A stretch of DNA of 12,300 nt from Candidatus Methylomirabilota bacterium (GCA_046726415.1 JBKPAK010000219.1:1-12300); one strand, 5' to 3'; shown: positions 4,051-9,442, numbered from the stretch's first letter. Translations and numbers: made by a program. The notes: generated by a model from the letters alone, not told the origin.

Positions 4051-4734
4051 TCAGAGCGGCTTCGGCTCCTGGACGGACGACGGGCGCCGGTGATACTGTC
4101 GCCGAACGAACTCCTCGTTGAGCGGAACACCCTTCTTGCACAGGGGGCACTGCTCGGGAGGGTAGGTCGGAAAATCCCGGCTGACCAGGCTAAACACCGG
4201 CGTATCCTCCACGGCGACCGAGGTCCTCCGCCACAGACACCCGACGCCGACCACCTGTCCACCGTGCCGGCCGATGAGGTGGACGAGCAGCTTGAGCGTC
4301 GAGCCCGACGAGACCAGGTCCTCCACCAGCAGTACCCTGGTGCCCGCTCGCAGGAGGCGCCGGAACTCCGCGGGTAGCGTTACACGCCGTTTGCCGCCGG
4401 CCACGCGTTTGATGCCATACACCACGATGGGGCGGGACGGGTGGGCGCGGGCCACGCAGTGGGACAGGATGAGGGCGCCGTGGCCGGTGGAAAGGACGAC
4501 ATCGATGGGCCAAGGGGCGAAGTGCTTGGCGATCACGGCGCCCAGACCTTCCGTGAACGACGGCTCCGTGGTGACCAGCGTCTTCTCGATGTATTCGCTC
4601 GTGTGATGGCCAGAGGGGAGAAGCACATGGTCGTTGGCGTGGTAGGCGCCCGTCCGCTTGAGAATCTCGAGATGGATCTTCTCGCGGACCTCCGCTTCCA
4701 CGGCCGCCGGATCCTGCCGGGGGGCGGTCGTCAT
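4051..4734 (-). CDS. Type I phosphoribosyltransferase, orotate PRTase (PyrE)-like but divergent
   Basis: H.LL.SG.H...Y N-terminal motif, PRPP-binding motif RVLLVEDLVSSGST, and C-terminal Y.PEQCPLCKKGVP typical of one PyrE subgroup. SD AAGGAG upstream on the - strand. Confidence 0.8.
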   Translation of the reverse strand: MTTAPRQDPAAVEAEVREKIHLEILKRTGAYHANDHVLLPSGHHTSEYIEKTLVTTEPSFTEGLGAVIAKHFAPWPIDVVLSTGHGALILSHCVARAHPSRPIVVYGIKRVAGGKRRVTLPAEFRRLLRAGTRVLLVEDLVSSGSTLKLLVHLIGRHGGQVVGVGCLWRRTSVAVEDTPVFSLVSRDFPTYPPEQCPLCKKGVPLNEEFVRRQYHRRPSSVQEPKPL

Positions 4735-4812
4735 CGGGGGTCTCCTTGCCTAGGCATTATCGCACGGCCTTCGGGCGAAGGGACGTCTGCCCGCGTGCTA
4801 GACTGACCCGAC
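4735..4812. promoter_or_regulatory. Compact divergent promoter region (PRTase on - strand, tsaB on + strand)
   Basis: - strand: TG-c-GATAAT (4764..4756) and SD AAGGAG. + strand: TG-c-TAGACT (4796-4804), 8 nt before the tsaB ATG. Palindromes TGCCTAGGCA (4747-4756) and CCTTCG-gg-CGAAGG (4768-4781). Confidence 0.5.
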
Positions 4813-5487
4813 ATGCGCGTCCTCGCCATCGACACGTCCACGCTGGCGGGCGGAGTCGCCCTTATCGAGGACGAGCGTACTGTGGCGGAGTATCTGCTCG
4901 ACGTCCGCCTGACCCATTCGGAGCGGCTGATGCCGGCCATCGATCGGGTCGTGGACGACGCGGGCTGGACGGCGCGCGATCTCTCCGGTCTCGCGGTGGC
5001 GGTGGGCCCGGGATCTTTCACCGGCCTGCGCGTCGGCGCCAGTGCGGCCAAGGGGCTCGCCCTAGCGCTGTCCATTCCGATTGCTGCGGTCCCGACCCTC
5101 GACGCGCTAGCCGCCGGGTTGCCGTATGCGGCGCTGCCGGTATGTGCGGTGGTCGTGGCCCGGCGCGACGAGGTGTATGCGAGTCTGTACCAGTGGGATG
5201 GCACGGCCATGCGCCGGGAATGGGACTATCTGGCCCTTTCGCCGCGCGAGCTGGCCGACCGGTTCCGGGAGCCGACAATTCTCGTCGGAGAAGGGGCCAT
5301 GATCATCTCCTCGTCGCTCGCGCGCCCGGCGCTGCCGTGGCGGCGTGGACCGGCGGCGGCCACCGTGGGGCACCTGGGTGTCGCGCGCCTTCGCGCGGGG
5401 GAGATCGTGGGTGCGGGCGACCTGGTGCCGCTCTATGTGCGGCCCTCGCAAGCGGAGCTCAAGCGCCGTGCTCTCACCGTCGCTTGA
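4813..5487 (+). CDS. tsaB: tRNA threonylcarbamoyladenosine (t6A) biosynthesis protein TsaB
   Basis: MRVLAIDTST, THSERLMPAI, AVAVGPGSFTGLRVG...AKGLA, ARRDEVY and LVPLYVRPSQAE. Followed by rimI, the usual synteny. Confidence 0.96.
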   Translation: MRVLAIDTSTLAGGVALIEDERTVAEYLLDVRLTHSERLMPAIDRVVDDAGWTARDLSGLAVAVGPGSFTGLRVGASAAKGLALALSIPIAAVPTLDALAAGLPYAALPVCAVVVARRDEVYASLYQWDGTAMRREWDYLALSPRELADRFREPTILVGEGAMIISSSLARPALPWRRGPAAATVGHLGVARLRAGEIVGAGDLVPLYVRPSQAELKRRALTVA

Positions 5488-5950
5488 GCTGATGCGCGTG
5501 GAGGACCTCGATGAGGTCCTCGAGATCGAGCGAGCCTCCTTCAGCATGCCCTGGTCGCGCGGCGCCTTCATGTACGAGATCGAGCGCAATCGCGTGGCGC
5601 GTTGCTGGGTAGTGCGCGAGGAGGGCGGCGTGGTCGGATACCTCTGTTTGTGGGAGGTTGCCGACGAGCTGCACATCACCAACGTGGCCGTGCATCCGGC
5701 CCACCGCCGACGCGGGCTGGGCCGAATGCTGCTCGCTCACGTCCTGCAGGATGCGGGCCGGCGGTCGCTGTCCCTCGTGGGGCTGGAGGTGCGGCCCACC
5801 AACACGGAAGCGCGTGCCCTGTACGAATCGTTCGGTTTTCGTGTGGTCGGCCGGCGCCGCGGCTACTACTACGACACCGGCGAGGACGCGCTGATCATGG
5901 AGGCGCGTCTGCCCGTGGCCGTCTCGGCTGGCGAGAGCTGGGAACATTGA
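5468..5950 (+). CDS. rimI: Ribosomal protein S18 alanine N-acetyltransferase RimI (GNAT)
   Basis: DLDEVLEIERASFSMPWS, DELHITNVAVHPAHRRRGLG, LEVRPTN..A..LYESFGF..VGRRRGYY.DTGEDALIM. Likely start is GTG 5468 (overlaps the tsaB end, GGAG upstream); alternative ATG 5492. Confidence 0.93.
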   Translation: MLSPSLELMRVEDLDEVLEIERASFSMPWSRGAFMYEIERNRVARCWVVREEGGVVGYLCLWEVADELHITNVAVHPAHRRRGLGRMLLAHVLQDAGRRSLSLVGLEVRPTNTEARALYESFGFRVVGRRRGYYYDTGEDALIMEARLPVAVSAGESWEH

Positions 5951-5978
5951 GCCATATCCGGCCGTTCAGGACACACGC

Positions 5979-6893
5979 GTGCGCATTCGACCACCTCTAG
6001 TCTTCAGAACCTGTCGTGTGGGCACCTTCGCCTGGGGAGTGCTCCTGGCGTTCTTCGCGGCGGCGGGCGCCGCCACCCCCGAGGAGATCGCGCGCGGGAA
6101 ATACGTCTTCGGCGCGGCCGGCGGGTGTGGGTGCCACACCGAGAAGGGGCAGCCCGTGAACGCGGGAGGGCGGCGCTACGACGGTCCCTTCGGCACGGTG
6201 TACGGCACGAACATCACGCCTGACACCAAGACGGGCATCGGCGGCTGGACCGACGCGCAGATCATCGACGCGATCCGGTCAGGGCGCCGCCCCAACGGCG
6301 AGCGCCTCATTCCCGTGCACCCATACCCGACGTTCAACGGCATGGCTGCGGAAGACCTCAAGGCGCTCGTGGCGTACTTGCGCTCGCTGCCACCTGTCAA
6401 CCGCCCGAACCAGCCGAAGAAGATTACGGTACCCCTCTTCGAATCCGTCTTCCTTCCGACCTGGCTGGCCGCGTTCTCCCCGCGCGAGTCGCCTCCGGCC
6501 ACGGCGCCGACTTCCGGGATCGCGCGCGGCGAGTATCTGGTGCGAGCGGTCGGCCACTGCGGCGAGTGCCACACGCCGCGTGGGGTGACCCAGGCCGTGG
6601 ACAACTCGCGCTTCCTCGCTGGCAACCCCCGCGGCCCGGAAGACTCCGTGGTGCCCAACATCACCCCCGATAAGGCCACCGGGATTGGCGACTGGTCCGA
6701 GGAGGACATCGCCGAGTACCTGGTGAGCGGCAACAAACCCGACGGCGACGTTGCCGGGGGGCTGATGGAGGAGGTCATCCACGGCACCACGGCGGGTTAC
6801 AAGGATCTGACCAAGGCCGACCTGCTCGCGATCGCTCGATACCTGAGGTCCATTCCGCCAATCCAGAACAAGGTCCGGAAGCCGCCATCATAA
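5979..6893 (+). CDS. Exported di-heme c-type cytochrome (dehydrogenase cytochrome-c-subunit / CycG-like), first heme motif contracted to CxCH
   Basis: Hydrophobic signal region, then two repeated domains, each ARGxY...C..CHT...NITPD.xTGIGxW. Heme motifs are CGCH (6126-6137) and CGECH (6558-6572). Start uncertain: GTG 5979 or GTG 6018. Confidence 0.88.
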   Translation: MRIRPPLVFRTCRVGTFAWGVLLAFFAAAGAATPEEIARGKYVFGAAGGCGCHTEKGQPVNAGGRRYDGPFGTVYGTNITPDTKTGIGGWTDAQIIDAIRSGRRPNGERLIPVHPYPTFNGMAAEDLKALVAYLRSLPPVNRPNQPKKITVPLFESVFLPTWLAAFSPRESPPATAPTSGIARGEYLVRAVGHCGECHTPRGVTQAVDNSRFLAGNPRGPEDSVVPNITPDKATGIGDWSEEDIAEYLVSGNKPDGDVAGGLMEEVIHGTTAGYKDLTKADLLAIARYLRSIPPIQNKVRKPPS

Positions 6894-6915
6894 CCCACTC
6901 ACCGGAGGGAGCGCG

Positions 6916-7392
6916 ATGACCCAGAGAAGGCAGTGGCGGCGCAGTGTGGTCCTGGCAAGTCTGGCCGTGCTCGCGATGGCCGGATGCGCATCCACGGAGC
7001 CGCCCAAGATGGGCTCAGCGGATGCGATCGCCCAGCGCCAGCGGTTGATGAAGCTACACGGCGCCCTCTGGAAGGACGCCCAGGACAAGGCCAAGGCCGG
7101 GCAGTTCGAGGCCATCGCCGTCGACGCGGAGGCCATGGCCTACGTCGCGCCCCAAATTCCAGAGCTGTTTCCGGAGGGCTCGCTCAGCGAGAAGTCGGCC
7201 GCCAAGCCGGAGATCTGGCAGAAGCGGTCGGATTTTGAGGCGGCGGCGAAGAATTTCCAGGTGCAGGCGGAAAAGCTCCGCGACGCGGCACAAAGCAAGG
7301 ACGCCACCGCCACGCAGGCGGTCATGCGGGAGTTCGGGAAGCTCGCATGCGGGAGCTGCCACACGCCCTTCCGCGTTCCGCCAAAGTCGTAA
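6916..7392 (+). CDS. Class II (cytochrome c'/c556-like) cytochrome c, probable lipoprotein
   Basis: RQRLMK N-terminal helix, ELFPEGS, SAAKPEIW...DF, single C-terminal CGSCH (7348-7362). Lipobox-like LAMAG-C with Cys24 at 6985-6987. SD GGAGG upstream. Confidence 0.9.
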   Translation: MTQRRQWRRSVVLASLAVLAMAGCASTEPPKMGSADAIAQRQRLMKLHGALWKDAQDKAKAGQFEAIAVDAEAMAYVAPQIPELFPEGSLSEKSAAKPEIWQKRSDFEAAAKNFQVQAEKLRDAAQSKDATATQAVMREFGKLACGSCHTPFRVPPKS

Positions 7393-7396
7393 CCCC

Positions 7397-7416
7397 GGCG
7401 CGACGGTGGTCGCGCC
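7397..7416. other. Intergenic hairpin between the class II cytochrome stop and the yceI SD
   Basis: GGCGCGAC-ggtg-GTCGCGCC: perfect 8-bp stem, 4-nt loop, no U-tract. It overlaps a 16-mer that is the exact reverse complement of the downstream repeat core. Confidence 0.7.
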
Positions 7417-7435
7417 CCGACGAGAGGAGGACGGG

Positions 7436-8089
7436 ATGGGTTGTACCGTCAGAAGCCTGGTCTTTGGGCTCGCCCTGGGTCTCTCGATTCCGGCGGCTGG
7501 GTGGGCCGACACCATGAACTTCAAGCTGCTCCCCAACTACTCGCGCGCGACCTTCAAGAGCGACGCCCCTCTTGAGACCTTCGTCGGCAACACGGCGGCG
7601 GAGGGCATCAACGGAACGCTGACGGTCGATCCGGCCCGGCCTCAGGAGGCCAAGGGCACGGTGAACGTGGATATGAACGCGGTCAAGACCGGCATCGAGA
7701 AGCGCGACGCCGACATGCGCGGCAAGCCCTATCTCGAGACGGAGAACGAGGCGAACCGCTGGGTGACGTTCGAGATCAAGAGCGTCGAGATCGCCGGTCC
7801 CCTGGAGCCGGGAAAGGCAGTGCCGGCCAAGGTGCGAGGCATCCTCACCGTGAAGCAGAAGCCCTCGGAGCGGGTGGCGGACGCTACCGTCACATACATC
7901 AAGCTGACCCCGGAACAGGTGGAGGCGCAGAAGCGCTGGGGCTTCACGGGCGACAACATCAAGGTTCGGGCAAAGTTCAACACGACCTTCACCGACCATG
8001 CCATGCAGGTCCCGCAGCTGCTCTTTCTCAAGGTCGCCAACGACCTGCAGCTCGAGACAGACCTGGTCTTCGTTCGCGCGACTAGATAG
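7436..8089 (+). CDS. YceI-family exported lipid/polyisoprenoid-binding protein
   Basis: Signal peptide (MGCTVRSLVFGLALGLSIPAAGWA), S.ATFKSDAPLETFVG, GTLTVDP, VKTGIEKRDADMR (YceI TG...RD motif), GILTVK. Strong SD GAGGAGG before ATG 7436; the ORF-track start at 7235 is too far upstream. Confidence 0.85.
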   Translation: MGCTVRSLVFGLALGLSIPAAGWADTMNFKLLPNYSRATFKSDAPLETFVGNTAAEGINGTLTVDPARPQEAKGTVNVDMNAVKTGIEKRDADMRGKPYLETENEANRWVTFEIKSVEIAGPLEPGKAVPAKVRGILTVKQKPSERVADATVTYIKLTPEQVEAQKRWGFTGDNIKVRAKFNTTFTDHAMQVPQLLFLKVANDLQLETDLVFVRATR

Positions 8090-8090
8090 A

Positions 8091-8115
8091 TGGAGGGGGC
8101 GAGACGCCCCCTCCA
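8091..8115. repeat. GC-rich inverted repeat (REP-like hairpin) directly after the yceI stop
   Basis: TGGAGGGGGCG-aga-CGCCCCCTCCA: perfect 11-bp stem with no poly-T tail. Its 3' arm supplies the start of the first tandem unit. Confidence 0.8.
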
Positions 8116-8288
8116 AACCTCCCCCCGCGGGCCGGGCGCGATCGCCGGCTCCAACCTCCCCCGCGGGCGGGGCGCGACCACCGGCCTCCAACCCTCCCGA
8201 AGCTGCGGGGCGCGACCACCGGCTCCAACCTCCCCCGCGCGCGGGGCGCGACCACCGGCCTCCAAACTTCCCCCCCCGGGCGGGGCGC
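8111..8288. repeat. Tandem array of ~37-nt units (4 full + 1 partial)
   Basis: Units start at 8111 (38 nt), 8149 (37), 8186 (37), 8223 (37) and 8260 (29, partial). Consensus CTCCAACCTCCCCCGCGGGCGGGGCGCGACCACCGG(C). A degenerate remnant lies near 8309-8336. Confidence 0.92.
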
Positions 8289-8409
8289 ACCCCTCGAAGG
8301 TTACACAAGCGCGCGGGCGTGACACCACCGGGCCTTCTGATTTCCCAATCGCCCGCGGGATGACACCGCGGCGGCGGAGAAGCGGATTCTGCGTCGGTCG
8401 CGCGGGGTT

Positions 8410-8418
8410 TGCTAAAAT
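8410..8418 (+). promoter_or_regulatory. Putative extended -10 promoter for meaB
   Basis: TG-c-TAAAAT in otherwise very GC-rich DNA, ~45 nt upstream of ATG 8462. Confidence 0.55.
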
Positions 8419-8461
8419 GCGAGGGCTCTTCGCGTCGAGCCCGCGCGTGAGCATCTCCCAG

Positions 8462-9442
8462 ATGAAGCGCGATCCTCTCCAACTCGTCGAGCGCATGCTG
8501 GCCGGCGATCGCTTGGCGCTGGCCCGTCTCATCACGCTCGTCGAAAACCGCGCAGAGGCGGTGCCCGCCATCATGCGCGCCGTCCACTCGCGGAGCCACA
8601 GGGCCTACGCGGTGGGGATCACCGGCCCCCCGGGCGCTGGCAAGTCGACGGTCGTGGACCGACTCGTCGCCCTTCTCCGGGCGGAAGGCGCCGCGGTAGG
8701 AGTGATCGCCGTCGATCCGTCCAGCCCGTTCACCGGAGGCGCGGTGCTCGGTGATCGCATCCGGATGCAGGCCCACGCTCTGGATCCCGGCGTGTTCATC
8801 CGCAGCATGGCCACCCGTGGCTCCCTCGGTGGCCTCGCTCACGCCACCCGCGACGTCATCCGCCTGCTGGCGGCCTTCGGCCATGCGTGGGTCCTCATCG
8901 AGACGGTCGGAGTCGGGCAGACGGAGCTGGACATCATGAAGTTGGCCGACACCACAGTGGTCGTGCTCGTCCCCGAATCCGGAGATGCCGTTCAAACCAT
9001 GAAGGCGGGCCTCATGGAAGCCGCCGACATTTTCGTGGTGAACAAGGCCGACCGGACGGGCGCGCACGGTCTGGTGGCCGAGCTCAAGTTCGCGGCGCAC
9101 CTGCACGACGCGAGCCCGACGACGCCCAAGGACGTGGACTGGCAGATCCCCGTGCTGGCCACCGAGGCCCAAAACAATGTGGGGGTGGCCGAACTGCTGG
9201 CGGAGATCAGGCGCCATCGTGCGGCCCTGGAGTCCACCGGTGCTCTCGAAGCGCGGCGGCGCGCTCGGCGGCAGCAGGAACTCTCGTCTCTCCTGGTGGA
9301 GGAGGTCACCGCTGCCGTGCAACGGCGCATCCGGGCCGGCGACGTCGCGGTGCTCCTGGAGCAGGTGAGGGCCGGCGAGATCGATCCGTACTCGGCGGTG
9401 CAGGCGATCCTGAGGCGGCCCGATCCCCTGACGCCTTCCTGA
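8462..9442 (+). CDS. meaB: Methylmalonyl-CoA mutase-associated GTPase MeaB (ArgK/MeaB family)
   Basis: GDRLALARLITLVEN, P-loop GITGPPGAGKST, AVDPSSPFTGGAVLGDRIRM, FIRSMATRGSLGGL, IETVGVGQ, VVNKAD and DPYSA. Start ATG 8462 (or GTG 8447), not 8090. Confidence 0.94.
   Translation: MKRDPLQLVERMLAGDRLALARLITLVENRAEAVPAIMRAVHSRSHRAYAVGITGPPGAGKSTVVDRLVALLRAEGAAVGVIAVDPSSPFTGGAVLGDRIRMQAHALDPGVFIRSMATRGSLGGLAHATRDVIRLLAAFGHAWVLIETVGVGQTELDIMKLADTTVVVLVPESGDAVQTMKAGLMEAADIFVVNKADRTGAHGLVAELKFAAHLHDASPTTPKDVDWQIPVLATEAQNNVGVAELLAEIRRHRAALESTGALEARRRARRQQELSSLLVEEVTAAVQRRIRAGDVAVLLEQVRAGEIDPYSAVQAILRRPDPLTPS

Follow-up and report, generated by a model that had tools for sequence, protein, structure and literature searches.

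Intrastrand triplex motifs were sorted into four classes by Holder et al. (2015; PMC4666352), and in class III of that scheme the third block is a pyrimidine block that lies parallel to the purine block. In the sections of that paper drawn on here, the G/C-rich BoxC, PIT and TMECO elements of Escherichia coli are described as intergenic and highly conserved, as lacking a transposase, and as tied to rearrangement between close strains, and triplex repeats of this BoxC/PIT/TM kind are associated with local instability. The consensus given there for TMECO consists of a C-rich stem of 9 nt, a loop of 3–6 nt, and two G-rich stems of 9 nt. Two sets of limits for such motifs are found in the same sections, those of the ITxF search (stems of 6–15 nt, loops of 1–6 nt) and those of Hoyne et al., as quoted by Holder et al. 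(more than 7 perfect triplets, loops of 0–10 nt).

The locus studied here has a repeat of this layout behind a yceI-like gene, continued by a tandem array of part of that repeat, together with an exact inverted match to the array unit ahead of the same gene. The window analyzed is the whole of contig C219 (12,300 nt), from a draft Candidatus Methylomirabilota genome of 7,604,788 bases in 352 contigs that is 98% complete and has a G+C content of 67.5%. An exact inverted 16-mer around a gene resembles a riboregulator or an invertible cassette, whereas comparison with related loci points to a side effect of an unstable repeat between genes, one confined to this lineage.

The hairpin-tail array behind yceI

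The yceI-like gene encodes a protein of 217 residues with a signal-peptide-like N-terminus, and has a GGAGG ribosome site just 5' of it. It is flanked by a cytochrome c' gene and by a meaB-type GTPase gene, the start of which, at 8462, was set via alignment with relatives. The genes and the features downstream of yceI are as follows.

5979–6893, plus strand: c-type cytochrome gene
6916–7392, plus strand: cytochrome c' gene, the upstream neighbor of yceI (Pfam Cytochrom_C_2, E 4.8e-23)
7436–8089, plus strand: yceI-like gene, 217 aa (Pfam YceI, E 1.8e-15)
8091–8125, plus strand: hairpin and mirror tail, the head of the dispersed element (−23.8 kcal/mol)
8092–8099, plus strand: purine arm GGAGGGGG, all purine
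8107–8114, plus strand: pyrimidine arm CCCCCTCC, all pyrimidine, followed by an AAA linker
8118–8125, plus strand: tail CCTCCCCC, the mirror image of the pyrimidine arm
8111–8296, plus strand: tandem array of tail and module (8111–8288 by TRF)
8410–8418, plus strand: TGCTAAAAT, extended −10-like box ahead of meaB (read from the sequence)
8462–9442, plus strand: meaB-type GTPase gene, the downstream neighbor (Pfam MeaB, E 2.1e-90)

Directly 3' of the yceI stop codon is a hairpin composed of TGGAGGGGGCG, the loop AGA and CGCCCCCTCCA, after which come AA and the tail CCTCCCCC. When the three blocks of 8091–8125 were aligned as a triplex, eight of eight triplets were in register, with C opposite G and T opposite A, and the order of the blocks on the plus strand (purine, pyrimidine, putative Hoogsteen strand) corresponds to the class III layout of an intrastrand triplex. 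The first 7 nt of the mirror tail were tested across the genome and showed no mismatch at 24 copies that have the same 8-nt arm, these being copies of one family and not independent events, while a direct repeat of the 8-nt arm without mismatches was found at no copy. The stem of 8 nt and the second loop of 3 nt are accompanied by a stretch of 7 nt between the purine and pyrimidine arms (CG-AGA-CG), which is one over the ITxF limit and within that of Hoyne et al., and four of its seven nucleotides extend the duplex.

The array begins within this element and runs toward meaB. TRF identified a period of 36–37 nt with 4.8 copies and 80% matches, and the units start at 8111 (38 nt), at 8149, 8186 and 8223 (37 nt each), and at 8260 (degenerate). 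In each unit a C-rich tail, CTCCAA(A)CCTCCCC, precedes a G-rich module. In sequence run X2, a contig joins position 8281 back to 8170 (+112 nt) through a single joint at a depth of five, which suggests that the copy number of the array differs in some strain, by about three more units.

The array as a whole is situated between the yceI stop codon and the −10-like box. That box, in the form TGCTAGAAT or TGCTACAAT, was found ahead of meaB in the congener G001 and in 10 of the 17 listed metagenome loci (those named are L132–134, L137, L143–145, L148 and L150), a recurrence that makes a separate meaB promoter, 3' of the array, probable. A consensus promoter scan of 5800–8700 listed nothing, and the promoter at this box is therefore one that we infer. 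Terminator-like sites numbered zero in the same interval, with no U-tract terminator predicted between yceI and the array. The hairpin at 8091 was considered as an intrinsic terminator and rejected, as its stem is followed by AAACC and not by a run of T. An Rfam search of the window gave a single match, at chance level and elsewhere in the window, and a search of 12 loci of the repeat family gave matches that were all below the gathering score. One run, which was guessed to be RNA, covered parts of the yceI ORF at a depth of two.

The element at the head of the array is one member of a dispersed family. More than 20 other contigs carry its 34-nt hairpin-tail at 91–100% identity, and a regular expression for it returned 29 copies at 22 loci, of which five are within 300 nt of a contig end. 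All of the loci that could be classified are at gene borders, with the side of the purine arm apparently turned toward the border, and the family is intergenic, multi-copy and conserved. Many of the loci have a module of the same kind behind the hairpin, and then tandem arrays of tail and module, with periods of 39 nt and of 69–83 nt. A reversed pattern was unusable as a control for the C-rich tail, since reversal leaves this tail almost unchanged and the pattern thus occurs within the repeat itself.

Beyond this genome, the hairpin is present in G001, G002, G003, G012 and G015, which are relatives at the level of genus or family, and in soil metagenome contigs the hairpin-tail has about 10-fold the depth of its flanks and many different neighbors. 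When one genome per prokaryotic species was scanned, at least 115 stretches had the exact hairpin-tail. Among the 80 matches listed, 48 were labelled Rokubacteria, Rokuibacteriota or Methylomirabilota, and 32 belonged to other groups, mostly one Syntrophaceae MAG, together with Desulfomonilaceae, an Acidobacteriota MAG, a few Alphaproteobacteria and others. The module is likewise well conserved across Rokubacteria-type loci in an alignment of 52, and close forms of the 16-mer considered below were found in the MAG contig L115 (15/16) and, as a close variant, on contig C80 of this genome. Since the module is conserved across loci and L115 matches at 15/16, the 16-mer of the array is a local version of a module native to the family, and not a derivative of the hairpin upstream of yceI. 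In two other hairpin families of the genome, and in the element at locus L146, arms made of G runs again precede tails made of C runs, an arrangement that would fit the same triplex-layout theme.

The inverted 16-mer and the hairpin ahead of yceI

The 16-mer CGGGGCGCGACCACCG is found exactly, on the plus strand, at three positions behind yceI, where it constitutes the module of units 2–4, and its exact reverse complement is contained in the 43-nt spacer between the cytochrome c' gene and yceI. The relevant features are as follows.

7397–7416, plus strand: intercistronic palindromic hairpin, stem GGCGCGAC/GTCGCGCC, loop GGTG (−17.4 kcal/mol)
7404–7419, minus strand: upstream inverted copy of the 16-mer, an exact match
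8168–8183, plus strand: 16-mer copy 1, module of unit 2
8206–8221, plus strand: 16-mer copy 2, module of unit 3
8242–8257, plus strand: 16-mer copy 3, module of unit 4

The preliminary description of this DNA had reported an exact 16-mer upstream and three inverted copies downstream, as well as a local hairpin at 7397–7416; the coordinates of all of the copies were confirmed, and so was the hairpin, with an 8-bp stem and the loop and predicted energy listed above. The upstream 16-mer takes in the whole loop and 3' arm of this hairpin, with one base of the 5' arm on one side and three bases beyond the 3' arm on the other, and 16 nt separate its end from the yceI ATG (7436). The three downstream copies represent one event and not three separate elements, because they are in register within one tandem array.

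The hairpin ahead of yceI was also found in relatives. The congener G001, which has 83% DNA identity over the locus, has the same stem in the same place, with the loop GCGC and another 3' flank, and 10 of the 16 positions of its site agree with the 16-mer. The window departs from G001 at three positions in the loop and three in the flank, and at all six of these it agrees with the module. Among the metagenome contigs, L134 has a hairpin close to that of G001, and L132 and L133 have a decayed form. The congener G002 lacks both this hairpin and an array. As the stem is shared by G001 and L134, with another loop in G001, it is older than the 16-mer match, and the hairpin appears to be specific to this locus. 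Hairpins of this 8-bp type number just three in the genome and the other two are apparently coding, so a dispersed family of its own was rejected. The edges of the identity between the upstream site and the module are sharp, with 16 of 16 positions matching inside and dissimilar flanks on both sides. Run X3 includes a closely related strain whose upstream 16-mer has the change G7419A, and the array pieces of X3 keep the 16-mer.

About 25 related yceI loci were examined, from two congeners (G001 and G002), six more distant genomes and 17 metagenome contigs, and at none of these was an inverted copy of the downstream element found ahead of yceI. The spacer between yceI and meaB is itself variable. 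G001 has a different hairpin-tail element of the same polarity, with its hairpin directly after the stop codon, and L132–L134 are like G001 in having a different hairpin-tail element there. A single G-run hairpin occupies the spacer in G002 and L135–L137, plain stem-loops are present in L143–L145 and L150, other tandem arrays in L146 and L148, and at some loci there is another gene. Based on these comparisons, different versions of the element appear to have colonized this spacer in different lineages, and the 16-mer pair is private to that of the window. Within its older hairpin, the upstream copy is a strain-lineage oddity and not a conserved control device.

The same uniqueness was apparent within the genome. 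Only one of the 22 family loci, that of yceI, has an inverted match of more than 14 nt to its 3-kb flank, and the longest inverted match between element and flank was 9–12 nt in 39 of the 41 flanks, 14 nt in one, and 16 nt here only. The exact 16-mer is present in four copies genome-wide, all at the yceI locus, compared to an expectation from base composition of 0.10 copies in the genome and of 2.6e-5 reverse-complement copies within 2 kb either side of the array. None of 200 dinucleotide shuffles of the window reached five matches at up to two mismatches (shuffle mean 0.13). The 16-mer pair is thus real and beyond chance, as the preliminary description had surmised in calling it hard to ascribe to chance, and the many unrelated sites at which a generic repeat might have been counted were not seen. 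Genome matches with one mismatch, and the others with two (e.g., on C96, C144, C297, C125 and C99), are apparently coding and were taken as chance.

We nonetheless weighed a coincidence in which two GC-rich structured elements share a core of the GGCGCGAC type and the remaining bases match by chance. The 10-nt core GGGGCGCGAC is indeed ordinary, with 122 occurrences in the genome against about 140 expected (hand-calculated from base composition), and exact inverted repeats of at least 16 nt spaced 100–2000 nt apart number 55 pairs genome-wide, against about 22 expected by the same kind of calculation. Most of those pairs are in coding sequence, and what is unusual about the pair at yceI is that both members are intergenic and surround one gene. 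The expectations given above, the six additional matching positions relative to G001, and the standing of this locus as an outlier among the 41 flank comparisons make a coincidence very improbable in our view.

The preliminary description had also offered the two ends as those of a cassette insertion or inversion, and inverted 16-nt repeats on either side of a single gene are what an invertible or inserted yceI cassette would show. Yet yceI has the same place and orientation between the cytochrome c' gene and meaB in G001, in G002 and at many metagenome loci, no recombinase or transposase domain was detected in the 19 ORFs of the window, and the downstream partner belongs to a tandem array of a dispersed family. 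No joint that switches strand was found in the contigs of four sequence runs, contigs being a form of data that drops rare variants, and for run X1 the uncovered parts of the stretch were uninformative. These results give the proposal of a cassette no support, and we regard it as extremely improbable.

A further suggestion, that the copies are members of a dispersed REP-like family, comes closest among those of the preliminary description but has to be divided. It holds for the element that carries the downstream copies, with its 29 copies at 22 loci, and fails for the exact 16-mer, with its four copies at one locus. What is dispersed, and mosaic, is the carrier element of hairpin, C-rich tail and G-rich module, and not the exact 16-mer itself.

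Origin and possible role of the inverted pair

Templated mutation, whether at a quasipalindrome or by strand switch, and short-patch conversion leave exact complementarity with sharp edges between nearby inverted sequences that share a short core. Classical quasipalindrome correction acts over tens of bases, whereas the partners at this locus are about 750 nt apart.

The explanation that we favor, and consider fairly probable, is that the array is an expanded copy of a dispersed BoxC/PIT-like repeat and that the upstream copy is a templated, inverted echo of it in an older hairpin. Under this model, one version of the element would have expanded at this locus via slippage or unequal exchange, such that a 37-nt unit of C-rich tail and module was amplified head to tail behind the hairpin that follows yceI. 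The upstream hairpin already had its 8-nt stem, GGCGCGAC, in common with the module. Its loop and 3' flank would then have been overwritten in the lineage to which the window belongs, with the result that 16 nt now match the module exactly in inverted orientation. The likeliest route would be templating over a short distance, by strand switch or by short-patch conversion from one inverted copy to the other. No genome intermediate between the end states of the upstream site was found, and a templated origin is what the end states would suggest. The pairing of the two sites would have no selected role.

An alternative is that the upstream hairpin is an old inverted solo fragment of the same family, which predates the split between the genome of the window (G000) and G001 and was later homogenized or decayed. 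On its minus strand the upstream element resembles, by eye, the long form of the family, in which the module leads into a second hairpin; the likeness extends over about 27 nt, with two mismatches to single members such as L094 and L103. The plus-strand 16-mer also differs at two positions from the module of a second family, one with 12 genomic copies, and a module can have either orientation with respect to its hairpin. However, neither a hairpin-tail nor another landmark of the family adjoins the upstream site, and the upstream versions in G001, L134 and L132 match the module less well than does that of the window. The nhmmer profiles searched against the genome, one of the module (50 sequences) and one of the long form (8 sequences), gave the upstream site no significant score; with the module profile it scored 6.1 bits against 4.3–7.7 bits for the array units, with E above 50, which is noise level for both. 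We consider an origin as an old fragment unlikely, if less so than the coincidence or the cassette.

The preliminary description had further raised the possibility that pairing within the mRNA modulates yceI. In such a scheme, a yceI mRNA that is read through into the array would carry at least three copies complementary to its own 5' UTR, and the pairing would replace the local hairpin and hide the ribosome site. Translation or stability of yceI would then depend on 3'-end formation or processing or, alternatively, a processed repeat RNA could act in trans. The structural predictions are in keeping with part of this scheme. The MFE and centroid folds of 7385–8300 both pair 7404–7419 with a copy in the array, the duplex between leader and unit is predicted at −54 to −57 kcal/mol, including GGAGG:CCUCC, which covers the ribosome site, compared to −17.4 kcal/mol for the local hairpin, and the full fold gains about 22 kcal/mol in stability when long-range pairs are allowed. 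Read-through would be compatible with the lack of a predicted U-tract terminator between yceI and the array, and PIT elements showed no terminator activity in E. coli, as summarized by Holder et al. (PMC4666352).

Other observations count against such a role. Neither congener has the 16-mer pair, nor do 17 other loci, and it is unique among the 22 family loci. The G7419A change in the X3 strain is not mirrored in the corresponding array pieces, and identity at 16 of 16 positions looks like a copy more than like a selected pairing. The fold of the whole region 7385–8300 is not unusual relative to shuffles (z −1.2), and ribosomes on the 654-nt ORF, together with co-transcriptional folding, would favor the local hairpin. 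The earlier proposal is therefore thermodynamically possible, in that the duplex is predicted to be favored over the local hairpin and the upstream site to pair with an array copy, and it has no support from conservation, as none of the approximately 25 related loci has the pair. We regard such a clamp on yceI translation as decidedly unlikely.

If both ideas are combined, one can speculate that a triplex-type array wrote an inverted 16-nt copy into the leader and thereby gave rise to a newly born, repeat-made translational clamp whose strength would scale with the copy number of the array. More generally, any transcript that includes the C-rich CCUCC tails could contain mimics of the anti-Shine-Dalgarno sequence. 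This speculation is a long shot. The templated copy, if that is indeed what occurred, would be of broader interest, as it would mean that repeats can rewrite nearby regulatory hairpins, which is a plausible route to new RNA-RNA pairings.

Comparison with described repeat systems

The description of the family is a concrete one for a poorly studied soil phylum: a hairpin, a mirror tail and a G-rich module, which amplify in tandem and break short-read assemblies. A literature search found no paper combining Rokubacteria with repetitive extragenic palindromic sequences.

Two systems with a dedicated enzyme were considered and set aside. A Y1 transposase gene (PF01797; IS200/IS605-like) of the kind expected for a REP/RAYT system was not found in the 98% complete draft of 352 contigs, in a search in which control genomes were matched, and a DUF559 endonuclease gene (PF04480), as expected for DUF559-associated triplex repeats, was not found in the same draft. 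In the descriptions of REP and BIME sequences from Enterobacteria and Pseudomonas drawn on here, these are dispersed extragenic palindromes at gene borders, form mosaics in both orientations, and are often clustered in ways that differ between related genomes, in all of which the family here is similar. Unlike REP/BIME sequences as so described, it is without a detectable Y1 (RAYT) gene, forms direct tandem arrays as opposed to alternating inverted REPs, and has a mirror tail.

The array also shares with minisatellites and VNTRs its head-to-tail units, which at 37 nt are within the 10–100 nt typical of such loci, its position in an intergenic spacer, and a hint, from the joint in run X2, of a copy-number difference between strains. 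It differs from these in that its unit is a piece of a dispersed family and not a private sequence.

The closest likeness is to the BoxC/PIT/TM repeats of E. coli and other Proteobacteria, as these appear in the sections of Holder et al. (PMC4666352) drawn on here. Both are short, G/C-rich, intergenic, multi-copy repeats with three consecutive blocks on one strand, in both one A/T position sets the register, and in both the copies are single or clustered. Neither has an associated transposase, and the loci that carry them are unusually variable between close relatives. The layout of the family matches that kind, and its three blocks may form a triplex. It differs from TMECO as characterized in those sections, where the order is pyrimidine-purine-purine (class II), in having a purine-pyrimidine-pyrimidine tail order (class III), and the sequence differs as well. 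Because a pattern for the published TMECO consensus had zero matches on either strand of the genome and the block order is different, the family is not TMECO itself. A further difference from TMECO, as far as that account describes it, is that the element here is joined to a conserved G-rich module and that tail and module amplify head to tail. On these grounds, the family would add a class III example to the BoxC/PIT/TM kind.

The yceI-meaB spacer and a candidate meaB promoter

The spacer between yceI and meaB, which carries the tandem array of family-1 tail and module (the tail and module of the dispersed hairpin family), is a recurrent site of landing and expansion. Two metagenome yceI loci from other lineages have tandem arrays of their own 3' of yceI, one with a unit of approximately 57 nt (L148) and the other with a unit of approximately 95 nt and a reverse-oriented AAAGGGGGGG hairpin (L146). 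In the same-genus relative G001, one copy of the second family (described below) is located after yceI. In one metagenome sequencing run (X2) compared with the window, a single contig at a depth of approximately 5 joined position 8281 back to 8170 (an additional 112 nt, window 8170-8281), so that a related strain may carry a different number of array copies.

Downstream of the array, the following feature was identified:

8410-8418, + strand: extended -10-like box TGCTAAAAT, approximately 45 nt upstream of the meaB start.

This box recurs upstream of meaB, as TGCTAGAAT or TGCTACAAT, in 10 of the 17 listed metagenome loci as well as in G001, and meaB therefore probably has a conserved promoter of its own.

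Elsewhere in the window (4731-5492), ORFs of 159 aa (- strand) and 248 aa (+ strand) overlap on opposite strands, with a phosphoribosyltransferase-like gene on one side and a GNAT gene on the other; neither ORF had a Pfam match.

Dispersed hairpin families in the source genome

At the 22 family-1 loci of the source genome, the purine-arm side of the hairpin was oriented towards the gene border, with the tail, module and array directed away from it. Using crude gene calls, made from ORF length and GC3, approximately 12 of these loci adjoin a divergent gene start (8-65 nt from the start codon, most 8-30), approximately six come after a stop codon and four are ambiguous.

A second dispersed family, of approximately 90 nt, combines a GGGGGGCC hairpin with a CCCCCC tail and with a module whose sequence includes the reverse complement of the family-1 module core; several copies of this family lie at contig ends. 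The third hairpin family has the purine arm GGGGGGAG (24 occurrences, both strands counted), followed by GAC-A-CCCCCC-ACCG.

Contigs of the source genome with copies of the other two families
Second family: C8, C24, C94, C122, C135, C154, C176, C190, C194, C200, C216, C293
Third family (examples): C25, C48, C85:49899, C149, C175, C194, C281, C315

The family-1 hairpin-tail in other phyla

As a scan pattern of 27 specified bases, the family-1 hairpin-tail motif is exactly common to several phyla. In one Syntrophaceae MAG it lies inside a larger multi-hairpin element of approximately 170 nt, whose many copies there are nearly identical (loci L025, L027, L032 and L034, plus at least 13 others), and Desulfomonilaceae MAGs contain copies similar to this element.
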